From Escherichia coli (GTDB lineage: Bacteria > Pseudomonadota > Gammaproteobacteria > Enterobacterales > Enterobacteriaceae): 64,000 bases of DNA. Of the stretch, positions 1,985 through 63,128 are shown piece after piece (within the stretch, counting starts at the first letter, position 1; each line of letters opens with the position of its first letter). The DNA is taken from the NCBI RefSeq assembly GCF_048403405.1, contig NZ_CP183129.1. One strand, given 5' to 3'. Made by a program: the position numbers and the translations under genes. The notes beneath the pieces were generated by a model. The model did no database searches. It was given only the letters and a program-made list of their open reading frames with translations, and was not told where the DNA came from.

Positions 1985-4018
1985 TCACGCGTCCGGGAAC
2001 ATCACGCTATGGCCCGGCGCTTCACGATGGAGATGGATAAAGTTAAGGTGTCGCTCGTACTGGTCGAGAATATCGGTGATCACCTGCTCTTTGCTGTAGT
2101 CCATCAGGTCGTTGCCCTGGCTGCCTTCTAACAGGAAGGTTTCCAGCCGGTAGTAGGTCGATTTCCCGCTACGTGCGCGGTAGGTAAAGCCCGGCACCGA
2201 ATATTGCTGCGGCCAAATCTGATAGACAAAGTTTTGCTCTTCGCCCATATGCACCAACAAATCCAGATGCCCCAACTGTTGCCCCTCTTCCGGCGGCAGG
2301 CTTTTTAGCTCCACGTACGCGCCGCGCAACCGCAGCTCCTGCGCCACTTCTTCCATTGCCGGGTAACAGACCGTCTCCATCATCTGTTTAGTGTAACGCG
2401 TGCCCGGATAATTCATCAGGCGCGAGAGACGTTTTTTCCAGCTCAGGCGATCCTGAAGCCCCAGCGGTCGCGGCGCGGTATCACGGTTGGCACTTTCACG
2501 GCGGTAATCTTCTACCTTCAGAGATTTATACAACCCCGCCATCACGAAGAAAATCACAAAGCTGAACGGCAGCCCCATGATTACCGTGGTGTTTTGCAGC
2601 GCGGATATCCCGTTGGTCATCAGCATGCCGAGCGTCAGCAGGCCAATCGCCACCGACCAGAAGACGCGCAGCCAGCCGGGGGCGTCGCTGTTGATATCTT
2701 TAAGCTGCGAGGTGAAATTCCCCAGCACCAGCGCCCCGGAGTCCGCCGAGGTCACATAAAACAGCAGGCCAGTAATGGTGGCGACGGAGGCGCTAAAGGT
2801 AAACGCCGGATACTGCGCCAGCAGGCTGTAGAAGCCGCGCTCCGGATGGACCATCGCTTCCTCGGCAAATGCCGCGCCGCCGTGGATGATTTCATACAGC
2901 GCGCTATTGCCGAACACCGAGAGCCATAACAGCGTGAAGGTAAACGGAATAATCAACGTGCCCAGCACGAACTGGCGAATGGTACGCCCGCGCGAGATAC
3001 GCGCCAGAAACAGGCCGACAAACGGCGACCATGCCACCCACCATGCCCAGAAGAAGAGCGTCCAGTTATTCATCCACTCAACCGGACGGTCGAAGGCAAA
3101 ACTGTTGAGCGTCATGCCCATAAAGCGATTCACATAGTCGCCAACGTTCAGCACCAGCGCATTAAGCAGGAACGAGGTGTCACCCATAAACAGCACGAAA
3201 AGGATCAATCCCAGCGCCAGCGCAACGTTAAGTTCCGATAACACACGAATGCCCTTATCGACACCGGAGGTGACAGAGATCGTGGCGATGATCACCGACA
3301 AGGCGATCAGTGCCGCTTTCGCCGCCATTGAATCGGGAATATCAAACAGTACGCTCAAGCCATAGTTAAGCTGCACCACACCGATACCGAGCGTAGTGGC
3401 AATACCGAAGATGGTGCCGATTACCGCTGCAATATCCACTGAATGACCAATCGGCCCGTTAATCCGTTTACCGAAGATCGGGTACAGCGCCGAGCGGATG
3501 GTGAGCGGCAAATTATAACGATAGCTAAAGTATCCGAGCGCCATGCCCATCAGCGCATACATCGACCAGCCGGTTAAGCCGTAGTGAAACAGCGTCCAGA
3601 CCATCGCCTGACGCGCGGCCTCAATCGTCTGACCCGCGCCTTCCGGCGGCTGCATATACTGCGTTACCGGTTCGGCTACGGAGAAGAACATCAGGTCGAT
3701 ACCGATCCCGGCAGCAAACAGCATCGCCGCCCAGCTCAGCAGGCTGAATTCCGGTTTGGATTGTTCTGGCCCGAGCTTCACCGAACCAAAACGCGAACAA
3801 GCAATACAGACCACAAAGACAATATAGAGCGTTGCCGCCAGCAGATAGTACCAACCGAAGGTTTTAGAAACCCAGTCCAGCGTGCGGCCAATCCACAGGG
3901 CCGAGAAGTCGCGAAACAGGATCGTTGTCAGGGAAAACAACAAAATCAGTCCGGCGGAAGTGTAAAACACCACCGGATTGATTTTGTCCTTTTCCCTGCT
4001 GTGTGAAAGGTCTGTCAT
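1985..4018 (-). CDS. betT: choline transporter BetT (BCCT family)
   Basis: 677-aa ORF, N-terminus MTDLSHSREKDKINPVVFYTSAGL matches BetT; divergent from betIBA. Confidence 0.92.
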   Translation of the reverse strand: MTDLSHSREKDKINPVVFYTSAGLILLFSLTTILFRDFSALWIGRTLDWVSKTFGWYYLLAATLYIVFVVCIACSRFGSVKLGPEQSKPEFSLLSWAAMLFAAGIGIDLMFFSVAEPVTQYMQPPEGAGQTIEAARQAMVWTLFHYGLTGWSMYALMGMALGYFSYRYNLPLTIRSALYPIFGKRINGPIGHSVDIAAVIGTIFGIATTLGIGVVQLNYGLSVLFDIPDSMAAKAALIALSVIIATISVTSGVDKGIRVLSELNVALALGLILFVLFMGDTSFLLNALVLNVGDYVNRFMGMTLNSFAFDRPVEWMNNWTLFFWAWWVAWSPFVGLFLARISRGRTIRQFVLGTLIIPFTFTLLWLSVFGNSALYEIIHGGAAFAEEAMVHPERGFYSLLAQYPAFTFSASVATITGLLFYVTSADSGALVLGNFTSQLKDINSDAPGWLRVFWSVAIGLLTLGMLMTNGISALQNTTVIMGLPFSFVIFFVMAGLYKSLKVEDYRRESANRDTAPRPLGLQDRLSWKKRLSRLMNYPGTRYTKQMMETVCYPAMEEVAQELRLRGAYVELKSLPPEEGQQLGHLDLLVHMGEEQNFVYQIWPQQYSVPGFTYRARSGKSTYYRLETFLLEGSQGNDLMDYSKEQVITDILDQYERHLNFIHLHREAPGHSVMFPDA

Positions 4019-4146
4019 CCAGTATCCCCACTGTTATTGTTACCATTTAAAATCAAATTCGTAACAATTAAGACACATTTTATATTGAACGTCCAATCAA
4101 TAACCGCTTTAATAGATAAACAACGCTGATGAATGGAGTGGCGAAA
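4019..4146. promoter_or_regulatory. divergent betT / betIBA control region with candidate BetI operator
   Basis: 128-bp intergenic region; near-palindrome ATTGAACGTCCAAT at 4084-4097 and inverted repeat ATTGTTAC...GTAACAAT at 4034-4068; TetR-family repressors bind palindromes between divergent promoters. Confidence 0.45.
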
Positions 4147-4734
4147 ATGCCCAAATTGGGGATGCAGTCGATCCGGCGCAGACAACTGATCGACGCCACG
4201 CTGGAAGCAATAAATGAAGTGGGCATGCACGATGCAACGATCGCGCAGATCGCCCGCCGTGCAGGCGTTTCTACGGGGATCATCAGCCACTATTTCAGGG
4301 ACAAAAATGGTCTGTTGGAAGCAACCATGCGCGATATCACCAGTCAGCTGCGTGACGCGGTTTTGAATCGATTACATGCACTTCCGCAGGGCAGTGCAGA
4401 GCAGCGATTACAGGCGATTGTTGACGGGAATTTCGATGAATCGCAGGTCAGTAATGCTGCGATGAAAGCCTGGTTGGCGTTTTGGGCCAGCAGTATGCAT
4501 CAGCCGATGCTTTACCGTTTGCAGCAGGTGAGCAGCCGCCGCTTGTTGTCGAATCTGGTGAGCGAATTTCACCGCGAGTTACCGCGCCAACAGGCACAGG
4601 AAGCGGGCTACGGCCTTGCCGCGCTGATTGACGGATTATGGCTGCGCGCGGCACTGAGCGGCAAACCGCTGGATAAACCTCTCGCACACTCGCTGACCCG
4701 TCACTTTATTACTCAGCATTTACCCACCGATTAA
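4147..4734 (+). CDS. betI: TetR-family repressor BetI
   Basis: ORF 4129..4734; start at ATG 4147 ([16 protein letters not shown]...) gives 195 aa. Confidence 0.9.
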
Positions 4735-4747
4735 CCGAGGAGACGTG

Positions 4748-6220
4748 ATGTCCCGAATGGCAGAACAGCAGCTTTATATACATGGTGGTTATACCTCCGC
4801 CACCAGCGGTCGCACCTTCGAGACCATTAACCCGGCCAACGGTAACGTGCTGGCGACCGTGCAGGCCGCCGGGCGTGAGGATGTCGATCGCGCCGTGAAG
4901 AGTGCCCAACAGGGGCAAAAAATCTGGGCGGCGATGACCGCTATGGAACGCTCGCGTATTCTGCATCGAGCCGTTGATATTCTGCGTGAACGCAATGACG
5001 AACTCGCAAAACTGGAAACCCTCGACACCGGAAAAGCGTATTCGGAAACCTCAACCGTCGATATCGTTACCGGCGCGGACGTGCTCGAGTACTACGCCGG
5101 GCTGATCCCGTCGCTGGAAGGCAGCCAGATCCCATTGCGTGAGACGTCATTTGTCTATACCCGCCGCGAACCGCTGGGCGTAGTGGCAGGGGTTGGCGCA
5201 TGGAACTACCCGATCCAGATTGCCCTGTGGAAATCCGCCCCGGCGCTGGCGGCAGGCAATGCAATGATGTTCAAACCGAGTGAAGTCACCCCGCTTACCG
5301 CGTTAAAGCTGGCTGAAATTTACAGCGAAGCGGGCCTGCCGGACGGCGTATTTAACGTGCTGCCGGGCGTAGGTGCGGAAACCGGGCAGTATCTGACCGA
5401 GCATCCGGGCATTGCCAAAGTGTCATTTACCGGCGGTGTCGCCAGCGGCAAAAAAGTGATGGCTAACTCGGCGGCTTCCTCCCTGAAAGAAGTGACCATG
5501 GAGCTGGGCGGTAAATCACCGCTGATCGTTTTCGACGATGCGGATCTCGATCTCGCCGCTGATATCGCCATGATGGCGAACTTCTTCAGCTCCGGTCAGG
5601 TGTGTACCAACGGCACCCGCGTGTTTATTCCGGCGAAATGCAAAGCCGCATTTGAACAAAAGATTCTGGCTCGCGTTGAGCGCATTCGCGCGGGCGACGT
5701 TTTCGATCCGCAAACTAACTTTGGCCCGCTGGTCAGCTTCCCGCATCGCGATAACGTGCTGCGTTACATCGCCAAAGGCAAAGAGGAAGGCGCGCGCGTA
5801 CTGTGCGGCGGCGATGTACTGAAAGGCGATGGCTTCGATAACGGCGCATGGGTTGCACCGACCGTGTTCACCGATTGCCGCGACGAAATGACCATCGTGC
5901 GCGAAGAGATCTTCGGTCCGGTGATGTCGCTTCTCACTTATGAATCTGAGGACGAAGTGATTCGCCGCGCCAATGATACCGACTACGGCCTGGCGGCGGG
6001 CATCGTGACGGCGGACCTGAACCGCGCGCATCGCGTCATTCATCAGCTGGAAGCGGGTATTTGCTGGATCAACACCTGGGGCGAATCCCCTGCTGAGATG
6101 CCCGTTGGCGGCTACAAACACTCCGGCATTGGTCGCGAGAACGGCGTGATGACGCTCCAGAGTTACACCCAGGTGAAGTCCATCCAGGTTGAGATGGCTA
6201 AATTCCAGTCCATATTCTAA
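4748..6220 (+). CDS. betB: betaine aldehyde dehydrogenase BetB
   Basis: ORF 4745(GTG)..6220; ATG 4748 preceded by GAGGAG; aldehyde dehydrogenase family sequence, [16 protein letters not shown]-terminus. Confidence 0.92.
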
Positions 6221-6233
6221 CCAGGAGGTTTAT

Positions 6234-7922
6234 TTGCAATTTGACTACATCATTATTGGTGCCGGCTCAGCCGGCAACGTTCTCGCTACCCGTCTGACTG
6301 AAGATCCGAACACAACCGTGCTGCTGCTTGAAGCAGGCGGCCCGGACTATCGCTTTGACTTCCGCACCCAGATGCCCGCCGCGCTGGCGTTCCCGTTACA
6401 GGGTAAACGCTATAACTGGGCCTATGAGACGGAACCGGAACCGTTTATGAACAACCGTCGCATGGAGTGCGGACGCGGTAAGGGGCTTGGCGGGTCATCA
6501 CTGATCAACGGCATGTGTTACATCCGTGGTAACGCGCTGGATCTCGACAACTGGGCGCAAGAACCTGGCCTGGAGAACTGGAGTTATCTCGACTGCCTGC
6601 CCTACTACCGCAAGGCCGAGACTCGCGACGTGGGCGAGAACGACTACCACGGCGGTGATGGCCCGGTGAGCGTCACCACCTCCAAACCCGGCGTCAATCC
6701 GCTGTTTGAAGCGATGATTGAAGCGGGCGTGCAGGCGGGCTACCCGCGCACGGACGATCTCAACGGCTATCAGCAGGAAGGTTTTGGCCCGATGGATCGC
6801 ACCGTCACGCCGCATGGCCGTCGCGCCAGCACCGCGCGTGGCTATCTCGATCAGGCCAAATCGCGCCCTAACCTGACCATTCGAACTCACGCCATGACCG
6901 ATCACATCATTTTTGACGGCAAACGCGCGGTGGGCGTCGAGTGGCTGGAAGGCGACAGCACCATTCCGACCCGCGCGGCGGCGAATAAAGAGGTGCTGTT
7001 ATGTGCAGGCGCGATTGCCTCACCGCAGATCCTGCAACGTTCCGGCGTGGGTAGCGCTGAACTGCTGGCGGAGTTTGATATTCCGCTAGTGCATGATTTA
7101 CCCGGCGTCGGCGAAAATCTTCAGGATCACCTGGAGATGTATCTGCAATATGAGTGCAAAGAACCGGTTTCCCTCTACCCTGCCCTGCAGTGGTGGAATC
7201 AGCCGAAAATCGGTGCGGAGTGGCTGTTTGGCGGCACCGGCGTTGGTGCCAGCAACCACTTTGAAGCAGGCGGATTTATTCGCAGCCGTGAGGAATTTAC
7301 GTGGCCGAATATTCAGTACCATTTCCTGCCAGTGGCGATTAACTATAACGGCTCGAACGCAGTGAAAGAGCACGGCTTCCAGTGCCACGTCGGATCGATG
7401 CGCTCGCCAAGCCGTGGGCATGTGCGGATTAAATCCCGCGACCCGCACCAGCATCCGGGAATTCTGTTTAACTACATGTCGCACGAGCAGGACTGGCAGG
7501 AGTTCCGCGACGCAATTCGCATCACCCGGGAGATCATGCATCAACCGGCGCTGGATCAGTATCGTGGCCGCGAAATCAGCCCCGGTGTCGAATGCCAGAC
7601 GGATGAGCAGCTCGATGAGTTCGTGCGTAACCACGCCGAAACCGCCTTCCACCCGTGCGGTACCTGCAAAATGGGTTATGACGAGATGGCAGTGGTTGAC
7701 GCCGAAGGCCGCGTACACGGGCTGGAAGGCCTGCGCGTGGTGGATGCGTCAATTATGCCGCAGATTATCACCGGCAATTTGAACGCCACGACGATTATGA
7801 TTGGCGAGAAAATGGCGGATATGATTCGCGGGAAGGATGCGTTGCCGAGGAGCACGGCGGGATATTATGTGGCAAATGGGATGCCGGTGAGAGCGAAAAA
7901 AATGAGTCGTGATTTGAACTGA
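6234..7922 (+). CDS. betA: choline dehydrogenase BetA (GMC oxidoreductase)
   Basis: N-terminal FAD motif [14 protein letters not shown]; apparent TTG start at 6234 with AGGAGG 5 nt upstream; track ORF starts at TTG 6189 inside betB. Confidence 0.85.
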
Positions 7923-58271: not shown

Positions 58272-59729
58272 GTGTCTGAACTGTCTCAATTATCTCCACA
58301 GCCGCTGTGGGATATTTTTGCCAAAATCTGTTCTATTCCTCACCCGTCCTATCATGAAGAGCAACTCGCTGAATACATTGTTGGTTGGGCAAAAGAGAAA
58401 GGTTTCCATGTCGAACGCGATCAGGTAGGTAATATCCTGATTCGTAAACCTGCTACCGCAGGTATGGAAAATCGTAAACCGGTCGTCTTGCAGGCCCACC
58501 TCGATATGGTGCCGCAGAAAAATAACGACACCGTGCATGACTTCACGAAAGATCCTATCCAGCCTTATATTGATGGCGAATGGGTTAAAGCGCGCGGCAC
58601 CACGCTGGGTGCGGATAACGGTATTGGTATGGCCTCTGCACTGGCGGTTCTGGCTGACGAAAACGTGGTTCACGGCCCGCTGGAAGTGCTGCTGACCATG
58701 ACCGAAGAAGCCGGTATGGATGGTGCTTTTGGCTTACAGAGCAACTGGTTGCAGGCTGATATTCTGATTAACACCGACTCCGAAGAAGAAGGTGAAATCT
58801 ACATGGGTTGCGCGGGGGGTATCGACTTTACCTCCAACCTGCATTTAGATCGTGAAGCGGTTCCAGCTGGCTTTGAAACCTTCAAGTTAACCTTAAAAGG
58901 CCTGAAAGGCGGTCACTCCGGCGGTGAAATCCACGTTGGCCTGGGTAATGCCAACAAACTGCTGGTGCGCTTCCTGGCGGGTCATGCAGAAGAACTGGAC
59001 CTGCGCCTTATCGATTTCAACGGCGGCACACTGCGTAACGCCATCCCGCGTGAAGCCTTTGCGACCATTGCTGTCGCAGCTGATAAAGTCGACGCACTGA
59101 AATCTCTGGTGAATACCTATCAGGAGATCCTGAAAAACGAGCTGGCAGAGAAAGAGAAAAATCTGGCATTGCTGCTGGACTCTGTTGCGAACGATAAAGC
59201 TGCCCTGATTGCGAATTCTCGCGATACCTTTATTCGTCTGCTGAACGCCACCCCGAACGGTGTGATCCGCAACTCCGACGTGGCAAAAGGTGTGGTCGAA
59301 ACCTCCCTGAACGTCGGTGTGGTGACCATGACTGACAATAACGTAGAAATTCACTGCCTGATCCGTTCTCTGATCGACAGCGGTAAAGACTACGTGGTAA
59401 GCATGCTGGATTCGCTGGGTAAACTGGCTGGCGCGAAAACCGAAGCGAAAGGCGCATATCCTGGCTGGCAGCCGGACGCTAATTCTCCGGTGATGCATCT
59501 GGTACGTGAAACTTATCAGCGTCTGTTCAACAAGACGCCGAACATCCAGATTATCCACGCGGGCCTGGAATGTGGTCTGTTCAAAAAACCGTATCCGGAA
59601 ATGGACATGGTTTCTATCGGGCCAACAATCACCGGTCCACACTCTCCGGATGAGCAAGTTCACATCGAAAGCGTAGGTCATTACTGGACACTGCTGACTG
59701 AACTGCTGAAAGAAATTCCGGCGAAGTAA
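58272..59729 (+). CDS. pepD: cytosol nonspecific dipeptidase PepD
   Basis: 485-aa ORF with GTG start; M20-family metallopeptidase. Confidence 0.95.
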   Translation: MSELSQLSPQPLWDIFAKICSIPHPSYHEEQLAEYIVGWAKEKGFHVERDQVGNILIRKPATAGMENRKPVVLQAHLDMVPQKNNDTVHDFTKDPIQPYIDGEWVKARGTTLGADNGIGMASALAVLADENVVHGPLEVLLTMTEEAGMDGAFGLQSNWLQADILINTDSEEEGEIYMGCAGGIDFTSNLHLDREAVPAGFETFKLTLKGLKGGHSGGEIHVGLGNANKLLVRFLAGHAEELDLRLIDFNGGTLRNAIPREAFATIAVAADKVDALKSLVNTYQEILKNELAEKEKNLALLLDSVANDKAALIANSRDTFIRLLNATPNGVIRNSDVAKGVVETSLNVGVVTMTDNNVEIHCLIRSLIDSGKDYVVSMLDSLGKLAGAKTEAKGAYPGWQPDANSPVMHLVRETYQRLFNKTPNIQIIHAGLECGLFKKPYPEMDMVSIGPTITGPHSPDEQVHIESVGHYWTLLTELLKEIPAK

Positions 59730-59739
59730 TTACAATAAT

Positions 59740-59761
59740 GTCCACGCCTGCGGGCGTGGAC
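59740..59761 (+). terminator. hairpin immediately after pepD stop
   Basis: GTCCACGCC-tgcg-GGCGTGGAC perfect 9-bp stem; weak downstream T-tract (TACTGTTTG). Confidence 0.35.
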
Positions 59762-59776
59762 TACTGTTTGAAGCCA

Positions 59777-60019
59777 ATGGCTATCTATATCGAAATAACA
59801 AAACATTATGAAACTCATGAAAAGGTCGCATATTTATATAGCTGCGACCATATTTCATGGGGAGAATTTCTGATCACCAAAGAAGGTTTTGCGCTGGAAT
59901 CCGTGAAAGAACTTAAGGGTGAAAAGCAGAAATTTTATATGTTCAGAGCCTGGGGCAAAGTCAGGAGAGCATACTTAACCACGGGAGAATTCCCCCAGGA
60001 AACATGTTACGCCGCTTAA
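59777..60019 (+). CDS. hypothetical 80-aa protein
   Basis: ORF 59738..60019; first ATG lies inside the pepD terminator hairpin, so ATG 59777 (MAIYIEITKHYE...) is used; no clear RBS. Confidence 0.25.
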   Translation: MAIYIEITKHYETHEKVAYLYSCDHISWGEFLITKEGFALESVKELKGEKQKFYMFRAWGKVRRAYLTTGEFPQETCYAA

Positions 60020-60035
60020 AGTCAGAGTTATTTTT

Positions 60036-60545
60036 TCATGCATTTACCATTTTGGCATTACGCCTGCGCCACATGGCAATGGCGGCAGCCACTAATGCCA
60101 GTTCCAGTAAAAACGACCAGTGTAATAAAAAATTGAGCCACCACGGATGATGTACCGCCGTAATATGAAAGAGTGCAAAGGGTTGGTTAACGAAAGGCAT
60201 CAACCACCAGATATCACCGACCAGCGTATCGAGTAATAAATGCACGATACCATTCAGGCAAAACACCACGCCCAACCACGCCGGAAGTTTATTCTTCGCA
60301 ATTGCGGCCCAGACTAATGTCGCCGCCAGCAGAGCAAACCATAATAATGGCCAATGAGACGGGTAAAGATGATGATGTCGTTGCCCGTTATCAACCAGAT
60401 AGCACCAAAAAAGATCAAAATCGGGCGCAACGGACCCAACTAAGCCAATAACCATCGCCCAGCGCGCATGACGAGCAATCAGTGGCAAGCGTTTCATTAA
60501 AGTACAAGTTATTAAATAACCAGCCGGAAGATGACCGATAAACAT
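60036..60545 (-). CDS. polytopic membrane protein, possibly DUF457/YdjM-like metal-dependent hydrolase
   Basis: ORF 60036..60599; ATG 60545 (MFIGHLPAGYL...) with AAGGA RBS; His-rich hydrophobic sequence; 7 bp downstream of prfH. Confidence 0.5.
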   Translation of the reverse strand: MFIGHLPAGYLITCTLMKRLPLIARHARWAMVIGLVGSVAPDFDLFWCYLVDNGQRHHHLYPSHWPLLWFALLAATLVWAAIAKNKLPAWLGVVFCLNGIVHLLLDTLVGDIWWLMPFVNQPFALFHITAVHHPWWLNFLLHWSFLLELALVAAAIAMWRRRNAKMVNA

Positions 60546-60606
60546 GACTATTCCTTTCGTTTTTCCCGCCGCTTTCACATAGAAAACGGCGGGAGACATT
60601 CCTCAA

Positions 60607-61221
60607 TTACACAGCGACAAAAGCCATCCCTGTAAACGTTCGTCGCGGGTTGCCACGTTCAATCTGGTGATGGAACATTCGCCGCTGCGATTTCAGCGCC
60701 GCGCTATTTTTCTGTTGCTGCTGCTCCAGCTTCCAGGCAATCAGCAATCGCGCCAGCCGTTTGTTAGCATGCTGGCTGCGCTCTGACTGAACCTTCACGC
60801 TAATCCCGGATGCCAAATGCGTGGCGCGTACCGCCGAGTCGGTTTTATTGACATGTTGACCGCCCGGCCCCGACGAACGCAGCGTCTCATACCGGATCGC
60901 ATCGGATTGCTCCTGCTCATCAGCGGTAAAACGCCCAATGCCCAGAAACCAGTTTTTGCGCCCATGATGAGGCCGATACGGACTCGGACAAATCCACTGA
61001 ATAGTGCCGCACCAACTTTCGCTTAATGCCCATGCATTATCGCCATCCAGAGAAACCAGCGCTGAACGCAGCGTGTCAGAGTAGCGGCCCGTTTCTGTTT
61101 CCAGCACCGTTACCGCGACGTCTTGTCGGGTAGCTTCTTTAATCAGCCTGTCCAGTGCCTTTTTCACTGCGAGACAACATTCTTCCGGCCCCTGCGCTGA
61201 GGAGAGTTGTAGCAAGATCAT
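60607..61221 (-). CDS. prfH: peptide chain release factor homolog PrfH (GGQ motif)
   Basis: ORF 60607..61305; start at ATG 61221 ([14 protein letters not shown]...) in ATGA overlap with rtcB stop; [16 protein letters not shown] motif. Confidence 0.8.
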
Positions 61222-62369
61222 CCTTTTTTCCCTCCACTGTTTTTGAGCGTTAGCACCGGACGCAGTCGCGCGACAGGAATAATTAAACCGGCTTGCACCA
61301 GACATTGCACCACACTTTCAGCCGATTTATAGGCTTGTGGCGCTTCTTCGAAGATGAGTTGTTTATCGCGACAAATCACCCGGCTGCCAAGTTCAGTACG
61401 CGAGAGTTGCGTCGCCGTGTAATTCGCTGCCAGACGCCCTTTACACTCGGTGCGCCCCCATTTACGCCCTGCCCCATGCGCCAGCGAGTGGAGCGTTTTT
61501 TCGTTCGCAACAGGTTTAACCAGCCAGGAGTAATCACCGCGTGAACCGGGAATAATCACCAGACCGTTGTCATCCGGCGTGGCACCTTTACGATGCAACC
61601 AGCCCTGTTGATCGCCGATTTGGCACGCGCTAACAAAGTTATGCGCCACATCCAGAACCGGACTTCCGGTGGCCTTAACTTGTTGCATTATGCGCAAAGC
61701 GATCATCTGGCGATTAATACGCGCAAACGCCAGCGCATCGTCATGTTCCGCAATATACCGTAGCGCGTCGTCACTGCCTTCAGGCAAACCATGATGCGAA
61801 AACGAGGCAATATGCCGCTGTAAAATAGACTGCCCCAACCCCCTCGAGCCGCTATGAACCAGCAGTTGCAGATGCTGCGCATCCAGACCTGCCAGTGCAA
61901 ACAGTTCAGCGTCGATGATTTCATCAACTTGTTGCAGTTCTGCAAAGTGGTTTCCGCCACCGATAGAGCCAAGCGAGCTGCGCCACGAATGCTGTGCAAA
62001 TGCTGACGGCAGGTTTTCCTCCAGCCAGCTTTCTTCAGCAACGTCATCCAAAGCTGATAATCGCTTTTCAAACTTATCGGCGTTGTATTTACGAGCGAGA
62101 ATATCTGTTTGCCATAGCGCCATGCCGCAGCCGATATCATTGCCGACCAGTGCCGGGTAAAAACGGCCTGCGGAGAAGAACGCTGCGCCAATCGGGTAGC
62201 CGCGTCCGGGATGTAAATCTGGCATCCCTACTACGCGCTGCATGTTGGGTAAATTTGCCGTGGTGTGTAATTGTTGGATCGCTAAACTCTCGATCCACAG
62301 GTCATCAGATGCGATGGTAAATACCGCATCGGATAAGGGACGAATATATTTGCCCATGTACCATTCCAT
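61218..62369 (-). CDS. rtcB: RtcB-family RNA ligase paired with prfH (RtcB2-type)
   Basis: 383-aa ORF with RtcB motifs ([27 protein letters not shown]); start may be ATG 62369 or 62357. Confidence 0.8.
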
Positions 62370-62675
62370 TTATACTCGTCATACTTCAAGTTGCATGTAC
62401 TGCGGCTGCGTTCGTTCACCCCAGTCACTTACTTATGTAAGCTCCTGGGGATTCACTCGCTTGTCGCCTTCCTGCAACTCGAATTATTTAGAGTATATAA
62501 ATATTAAAAATCAGGAAATGGCAGACGAATCCAGGGCAAGAAAAAAAGAATTAATCCTGGAAAGGTCTGCAAAGAGTCATTGATAAAGGATTTGTCATGA
62601 TTTACCTCCTTGCAGTTTGTGGAATAAGAAAACGCGCACATACTAGGCGGGTGTTATTTTCATTGCAAGCTGGAT

Positions 62676-63128
62676 TTAATGTTGCGGTTTATATCGCATA
62701 GAAAAATTAGTAAACCACGCTCCCCTGCATTCAACGCGCTGCTGCTTAACTGTCTGAAAACCATAACGTTCAAAAAAGGGTTTTGCGGTTATGCTGGCAT
62801 CTACCGTTAGTTCGGATTCAGACTTAATCAATGGTTTTAACAAAGCGCTGGCAACCCCACAGCGGGTGTATTCAGGGTCAACAAATAACATATCGATATA
62901 GTGTTCAACGCGGGAAATAAAACCAACCGGTTGTGCATTAATGATCGCAACCCACACTTGTGATTTCGCGAGTTTCTCCTTCCAGCGAGATTCGTCAATC
63001 TGCGCCCAGGCGGCAATTTGTTGTGGTGAATAATGCTGACTGGCGGTCATCGTAACCGCTCTAAGGAAAATAGCGCATAGTTGCTGAAAATCGCCAGGCT
63101 GATAGTTTCTTATTTGTATGTTATTCAT
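62676..63128 (-). CDS. yafP: GNAT-family acetyltransferase YafP
   Basis: 150-aa ORF, last gene of the dinB-yafNOP operon. Confidence 0.85.
   Translation of the reverse strand: MNNIQIRNYQPGDFQQLCAIFLRAVTMTASQHYSPQQIAAWAQIDESRWKEKLAKSQVWVAIINAQPVGFISRVEHYIDMLFVDPEYTRCGVASALLKPLIKSESELTVDASITAKPFFERYGFQTVKQQRVECRGAWFTNFSMRYKPQH

Follow-up and report, generated by a model that had tools for sequence, protein, structure and literature searches.

We analyzed a locus of Escherichia coli at which the gene for an RtcB-family RNA ligase (rtcB2), the gene for peptide chain release factor H (prfH), and a gene for a small membrane protein follow one another on the same strand. The locus lies at positions 60036 to 62369 of a 64,000-nucleotide stretch of contig NZ_CP183129.1 (assembly GCF_048403405.1). 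This whole stretch is called the window, and coordinates given without a locus name are window positions. A first-pass annotation of the DNA had placed three same-strand open reading frames (ORFs) in this interval. The three ORFs stood, and the start of rtcB was moved from 62369 to 62357. The features that form the core of the locus were as follows.

61218..62357, minus strand: rtcB2, RtcB-family RNA ligase, 379 aa, intact (NF007153, TIGR03073, RefSeq coding sequence, motif alignment)
61218..61221, minus strand: ATGA overlap of the rtcB2 stop and the prfH start (sequence itself; overlaps at 32/41 comparable loci)
60607..61221, minus strand: prfH, peptide chain release factor H, 204 aa, intact (TIGR03072; comparison with 7SA4)
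60546..60606, minus strand: 61 bp separating prfH from the membrane gene, including the 60564-60594 hairpin (fold; terminator and promoter scan)
60036..60545, minus strand: YdjM-family (PF04307) inner-membrane protein, predicted, 169 aa (Pfam, orthologue starts, AlphaFold2 model, substitution rates)

From low to high coordinates, the window carried crl, frsA, and gpt on the minus strand, followed by pepD and a small ORF on the plus strand. Beyond the small ORF were the membrane-protein gene, prfH, and rtcB, all on the minus strand, then a repeat-containing spacer, and then yafP, yafO, and yafN, which were also on the minus strand. The TUM14771 record was 100% identical to the window, and in that record dinB was located further upstream on the same minus strand.

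The rtcB2-prfH pair

Each gene of the pair matched its NCBIfam models over the full length and scored above their curated cut-offs, and neither was truncated. The rtcB2 product scored 641 bits against NF007153 (cut-off, 407), covering model positions 1-378 of 379, and 621 bits against the PrfH-associated model TIGR03073 (cut-off, 272). The start was placed at 62357 (MGKYIRP..., 379 aa) because the NCBIfam model aligned from residue 5 of the 383-aa ORF; the RefSeq coding sequence was likewise 379 aa long. The motifs GCG, NHF, HSGSRG, AHN, and LAH(294)GAGRK in RtcB2 aligned with the same motifs of Thermus thermophilus RtcB (TTHA1785). In the case of prfH, the score against TIGR03072 was 328.5 bits (cut-off, 166.65), and the match covered model positions 1-200 of 200. 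The 204-aa PrfH had its GGQ motif at residues 120-122 and lacked the N-terminal domain 1 of release factors RF1 and RF2, aligning solely to RF2 residues ~115-307. Relative to Escherichia albertii, the ratio of nonsynonymous to synonymous substitution rates (dN/dS) was 0.14 for rtcB and 0.11 for prfH.

The rtcB2 gene was located directly upstream of prfH, and the stop codon of rtcB and the start of prfH shared the 4-nt sequence ATGA at 61218-61221 (...GGATGATC...). For comparison across species, we took the best 80 tblastn hits, with one genome per species and few Enterobacteriaceae; a PrfH alignment was built, 79 loci were fetched, and 64 of the 79 were true PrfH loci. A high-scoring RtcB2-type gene was found upstream of prfH at 41 PrfH loci. 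Stop and start overlapped at 32 of them, and the overlap was exactly 4 nt in 18. Because the overlap recurred across species, the coupling is a trait of the family and not a chance arrangement.

The function of such pairs has been described. PrfH frees the peptide from ribosomes whose 16S rRNA has been cut in the decoding center, RtcB2 re-ligates the rRNA, and the rtcB2-prfH operon protects cells from colicin E3 (PMC9304027, PMC9223846, PMC13166195). Specifically, the RtcB2 of strain ATCC 25922 ligates 16S rRNA that was cleaved by colicin E3 (PMC9304027, PMC9223846, PMC13166195), and plasmid-borne rtcB2 and prfH alone protect the K-12 strains MG1655 and BW25113 (PMC9304027, PMC9223846). The system was inactivated by mutating PrfH Q122, and H294N is the published inactivating mutation of RtcB2 (PMC9304027). 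Both of these catalytic residues were retained in the window, which had the locus, gene order, and ATGA-type coupling in common with the ATCC 25922 operon.

The window PrfH matched chain 8 of PDB entry 7SA4, the ATCC 25922 PrfH solved on a ribosome damaged by colicin E3, at 198 of 202 aligned residues, and the four substitutions in the window were R20K, I56V, E171K, and I202V. For RtcB2, we used strain ET201, whose PrfH ends in ...AFIEG, as a stand-in for the ATCC 25922 haplotype; the window and ET201 RtcB2 proteins were ~97% identical. The window PrfH ended in ...AFVAV, whereas that of ET201, which has no membrane gene, ended in ...AFIEG. Within the 202 aligned positions, the solved PrfH agreed with ET201 in having I202; the final two residues of the solved chain were not visible.

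Judged by its sequence, the window pair is an intact copy of an already characterized two-gene rescue-and-repair module, and thus is known and not new. In the window strain, PrfH would recognize the damaged decoding center and release the peptide through its GGQ motif, and RtcB2 would then re-ligate the 16S rRNA. The window therefore adds one more intact RtcB2-PrfH copy to an established example of the repair of toxin-cut ribosomes.

The K-12 pseudogenes ykfJ and prfH occupy the same chromosomal position as the window pair, between yafP and pepD. In K-12-type strains, a ~1-kb deletion has taken the C-terminus of rtcB and the N-terminus of prfH, and the membrane gene is missing too, whereas the window is intact. 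Between 2,679 and 2,714 of 5,426 complete E. coli genomes, or about half, kept the piece that is deleted in K-12.

The first-pass annotation had described an apparently intact pair, translationally coupled through ATGA and containing a release-factor homolog with a GGQ motif, and the sequence comparisons above agreed on each count. Two further statements of the annotation were borne out as well: the K-12-type strain C600 carried the two genes as partial pseudogenes, and the link to the repair of ribotoxin-damaged ribosomes has been published (PMC9304027, PMC9223846).

The membrane-protein gene and its leader

The product of the third gene matched the Pfam YdjM family (PF04307) with an E value of 1.2e-8 over model positions 3-164 of 176. 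All of its 100-plus homologues carried a precomputed PF04307 assignment, and their typical length was 165-180 aa. The first-pass annotation had placed this gene only 7 bp after prfH, a distance that arose from taking the longest ORF (ATG at 60599). Orthologues all started with MFIGHLPAGY, which corresponds to the ATG at 60545, and the in-frame stretch upstream of that codon differed completely between species. Furthermore, a well-placed AAGGA preceded the ATG at 60545, whereas the GAGGA before the ATG at 60599 abutted that codon. With the conserved start, the gap to prfH was 61 bp in the window, compared with 92-113 bp in orthologous loci, and the membrane gene was therefore not tightly coupled to the prfH coding sequence.

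The description of the product as a His-rich polytopic membrane protein held up. It contained 11 His residues in 169 aa, and the helices in the AlphaFold2 model fit a polytopic topology; the model had five long helices and one short one, with a predicted local distance difference test score (pLDDT) of 92. Residues H5, D42, D44, D52, H58, H59, H64, H102, and D106 were the invariant His and Asp residues of the subfamily. The dN/dS relative to E. albertii was 0.19. By this value, the membrane gene is a real gene under purifying selection.

The RefSeq entry for this 169-aa protein is labeled 'metal-dependent hydrolase'. We found no solved structure and no characterized relative for the family, so we treat this name as an annotation label only. 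The window protein resembles the YdjM/DUF457 family of inner-membrane proteins, which includes E. coli YdjM and YbcI, in its small size, its polytopic topology, and its invariant His and Asp residues. It differs in its distant relationship to the Pfam seed and in matching no NCBIfam model, and no LexA box was found for its gene; searches of PADLOC and PHROGs also gave no match for it. A paper on the Cap1 membrane pore, which had come up as a literature lead for DUF457, was a false lead, as the text matches were to DUF4579.

We also inspected the 61-bp spacer downstream of prfH. On the minus strand, it contained a hairpin with a 13-bp stem at 60564-60594 (dG, -24.8 kcal/mol; z, -4.2). This hairpin was considered as a terminator for rtcB2-prfH and was ruled out, since neither strand had a U-run. 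The spacer as a whole (60546-60606) contained no terminator-like site, no strong promoter-like site, and no U-run, and an Rfam scan of 59600-62800 found nothing in it. Because the 61-bp spacer lacked a terminator and a clear promoter, there is about an even chance that in the window strain the membrane gene is transcribed by read-through from rtcB2-prfH, as a predicted, passive linkage. A related hairpin (GCCGCTT...AAGCGG) preceded the orthologue in E. albertii and in a Klebsiella aerogenes strain without rtcB-prfH, and the leader hairpin was weaker or different at the remaining orthologous loci.

Distribution and ancestry of the membrane gene

The first-pass annotation had suggested that the membrane gene may be a third member of the rtcB-prfH operon. 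We looked for conservation of the gene beside rtcB-prfH across genomes and did not find it; the annotation itself had named such a lack as a refutation of the idea. The membrane gene was present in 329 of the 5,426 complete E. coli genomes (~6%). When only genomes with an undeleted rtcB2-prfH pair were counted, ~12% carried it and ~88% did not; in the latter, pepD was followed directly by an intact prfH. Among the 64 PrfH loci from different species, which were searched with a subfamily hidden Markov model of the membrane protein, the gene was downstream of prfH at one, that of Superficieibacter electus. Elsewhere among these loci the downstream neighbor was heterogeneous, and in ~40% it was on the opposite strand.

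The difference within E. coli was traced to one segment, which also contains the small ORF.

59733..60614, no strand: 882-bp segment containing the 80-aa ORF and the membrane gene (alignment to ET201; genome counts)
59777..60019, plus strand: 80-aa ORF, annotated as 93 aa from 59738 (homologue lengths and context; dN/dS)

The window has the 882-bp segment beside prfH, whereas the majority haplotype, of which ET201 is an example, does not; in most E. coli, as seen in the alignment to ET201, positions 59733-60614 were replaced by a ~61-bp hairpin-bearing sequence. The right breakpoint of this indel fell inside the last codons of prfH (window positions 60607-60615; positions 2993-3001 of locus L002). 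Because the segment adjoins prfH in the window and the breakpoint lies inside the gene, E. coli has the two alternative PrfH C-termini noted above.

E. albertii had the same arrangement of rtcB-prfH, membrane gene, and small ORF, with 90-96% amino acid identity, and rtcB-prfH and the membrane gene were located beside pepD in two enterobacterial contigs. Since these genomes share it, the arrangement is ancestral. The comparison of loci showed that the membrane gene is an ancestral occupant of the variable slot that separates dinB-yafP from pepD in Escherichia and certain other Enterobacteriaceae, and that ~6% of E. coli have kept the gene and the rest have deleted it.

In E. albertii, an extra 171-aa ORF with hydrophobic segments lay between pepD and the 80-aa ORF (positions 4450-4965 of locus L100); this ORF was absent from the window, and its product was unrelated to the Salmonella Rhs tip described below and had no NCBIfam match and no Pfam record. 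In E. coli HS-02, a 420-bp homopolymer-rich stretch was located between pepD and a K-12-type prfH pseudogene (positions 3057-3420 of locus L092). This stretch showed 78% similarity to the membrane gene over the 5' part of the latter and may be a decayed remnant or an assembly artifact, and it was not used.

Outside Escherichia, the pair and the membrane gene could also occur separately. Typical K. aerogenes, the Klebsiella michiganensis group, and Citrobacter sp. FP75 had rtcB-prfH followed by pepD, with the membrane gene absent. One K. aerogenes strain had yafP, the membrane gene, and pepD, without rtcB-prfH, and its flanks were 95-98% identical to those of an rtcB-prfH strain. Thus, the K. 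aerogenes yafP-pepD slot held alternative cassettes: the YdjM-like gene alone (locus L003, positions 5825-6589) or rtcB-prfH alone (locus L096, positions 2699-4657). More distant homologues (46-55% identity), from Halopseudomonas, Pseudomonas, Rhodocyclales, and marine bacteria, were found in unrelated contexts, never beside rtcB or prfH.

In the papers on RtcB2-PrfH, the operon consists of two genes, and the membrane gene is not mentioned. Accessory genes are described as accreting around RFH-RtcB, and the passages of Burroughs and Aravind 2019 that were searched list tetratricopeptide repeat (TPR), Pol-beta-type nucleotidyltransferase, zinc-finger, and charged-helix proteins without mentioning the membrane protein (PMC6514570). 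Such accessories, too, are an extra same-strand gene immediately downstream of prfH. The accessories described there are soluble, RNA- or ribosome-oriented, and recurrent across lineages (PMC6514570, same passages), whereas the YdjM-like protein is predicted to be membrane-embedded and its gene, unlike theirs, is found in only a few Enterobacteriaceae, at a single syntenic locus.

Other genes were seen downstream of prfH in our own set of loci. A gene for a 171-183-aa protein that resembled the TPR gene of the literature was found at six Bacteroidota loci, mostly of Flavobacteriaceae (L051, L055, L056, L059, L061, and L073). Three Pseudoalteromonas loci (L035, L036, and L042) encoded a protein of 114 aa whose motif CSRNQWRS resembles that of low-molecular-weight phosphatases, and an RNA-ligase-like protein with a KMDGEN motif was encoded at four loci (L035, L036, L038, and L044).

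The results of these comparisons suggested that rtcB2-prfH is the known two-gene module and that the YdjM-family gene is a separate, ancestral neighbor that is neither conserved with the pair nor required for it. We give this reading a probability of about 0.85. The membrane gene is taken not to be required because the two genes alone protect K-12 hosts, whose loci lack it. The membrane protein itself is best read as one with an independent function, for which co-transcription with the pair, if any, would be passive. The useful result is a negative one, namely, that adjacency alone is no ground for annotating or studying the membrane gene as part of the repair operon. The locus is a variable one, at which cassettes have been swapped or lost, and the gene instead identifies its ancestral form in Escherichia.

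Competing explanations and the small ORF

Several observations weigh against a separate neighbor and leave room for a lineage-specific accessory role of the membrane gene. Nearly all of the E. coli carriers (327 of 329) have the whole arrangement, and the membrane gene is almost never found beside a deleted pair. The three genes are adjacent and co-directional in Escherichia, an enterobacterium, and Superficieibacter; no terminator separates prfH from the membrane gene; and the passages cited above describe accessory genes that have gathered around RFH-RtcB, though these encode other types of protein (PMC6514570). In addition, our cross-species sample, which consisted of the best 80 tblastn hits, was poor in Enterobacteriaceae.

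The strongest form of such a role would make the YdjM-like protein a genuine third component, specific to Escherichia and a small number of related genera, co-transcribed with the pair and located at the inner membrane, where it might, for example, sense or degrade incoming nuclease toxins or tether repair near the site of translocation. Adjacent, co-directional genes in E. coli, E. albertii, Superficieibacter, and two enterobacterial contigs would fit this proposal, as would a 61-bp spacer without a terminator, a dN/dS of 0.19 indicating purifying selection, and the known accretion of accessories. We nevertheless consider a third component unlikely, because the gene is missing from ~88% of E. 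coli with an undeleted pair and from 63 of the 64 PrfH loci of other species, it occurs without the pair in K. aerogenes and wherever its distant homologues were examined, and the two-gene module suffices in hosts that lack it.

It would also be conceivable that the membrane gene belongs functionally to the upstream dinB-yafP SOS cluster and that an insertion placed rtcB2-prfH between the two. The namesake of the family, YdjM of E. coli, is LexA regulated. The genes dinB, yafP, and the membrane gene follow in this order on one strand in K. aerogenes GCA_018445925, and all window genes from yafN through the membrane gene are on the minus strand, as is the upstream dinB in TUM14771. However, no LexA-box-like sequence (CTGT-N8-ACAG, at least 7/8 matches) was found in the 200 nt before the membrane gene at any of five orthologous loci, and none was found upstream of rtcB. 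Distant homologues were not beside dinB, and the gap between yafP and the membrane gene in K. aerogenes was 182 bp long and contained a hairpin. We regard membership in an SOS cluster as very improbable.

The small ORF bears on a further proposal. Its start is probably at 59777, which gives 80 aa, and its homologues were also 80 aa long. The annotated 93-aa start (59738) overlaps the pepD terminator hairpin at 59740-59761. This 9-bp GC-rich hairpin lies directly 3' of pepD and had a terminator-like score on both strands. The 80-aa ORF is convergent with the membrane gene, its homologues were restricted to Escherichia and Salmonella, and its dN/dS relative to E. albertii was 0.11, which pointed to purifying selection. 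The homologue in Salmonella (56% identity) lay 10 nt downstream of a C-terminal Rhs toxin tip or downstream of an orphan copy of the tip, and the tip itself had no Pfam or NCBIfam match and an empty PDB sequence search. The position after an Rhs toxin tip is that of an immunity gene, and the 80-aa ORF is therefore a candidate orphan immunity gene of the Rhs type; neither in the window nor in E. albertii is it preceded by a toxin gene.

On this basis, the 882-bp segment might be a small defense islet against inter-bacterial toxins, in which the 80-aa orphan immunity protein is joined by the membrane protein as a second factor. The immunity position of the Salmonella homologue, the joint gain and loss of the two genes in E. 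coli, and the fact that RtcB2-PrfH itself counters secreted rRNases (PMC9304027) are compatible with an islet. In Superficieibacter, K. aerogenes, and loci L004 and L094, however, the membrane gene occurs without the 80-aa ORF, 50-80 bp from pepD; the two genes are convergent and do not form an operon; and neither protein had a match in PADLOC, PHROGs, or NCBIfam, with none in Pfam for the 80-aa ORF. Such an islet is quite improbable in our judgment. A broader version, in which the YdjM-like protein is read through from rtcB2-prfH and, possibly together with the 80-aa gene, provides a membrane-level layer against imported nuclease toxins, is also an unlikely one. If it were true, the locus would be a three- or four-gene anti-toxin islet instead of a two-gene repair module, and it would provide the first functional handle on the uncharacterized YdjM/DUF457 family.

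A minor observation concerned the spacer between yafP and rtcB, which contained a repeat element at 62375-62498. Positions 62398-62473 of this element were missing in E. albertii. In the Rfam scan of 59600-62800, the element matched V_AS5 below threshold, with 49 bits compared with a gathering score of 96. It presumably holds both primer sequences used in enterobacterial repetitive intergenic consensus (ERIC)-PCR, as an ERIC/IRU (intergenic repeat unit) element would. A 3-kb query that contained the repeat had a median of 6 matching places per E. coli genome.

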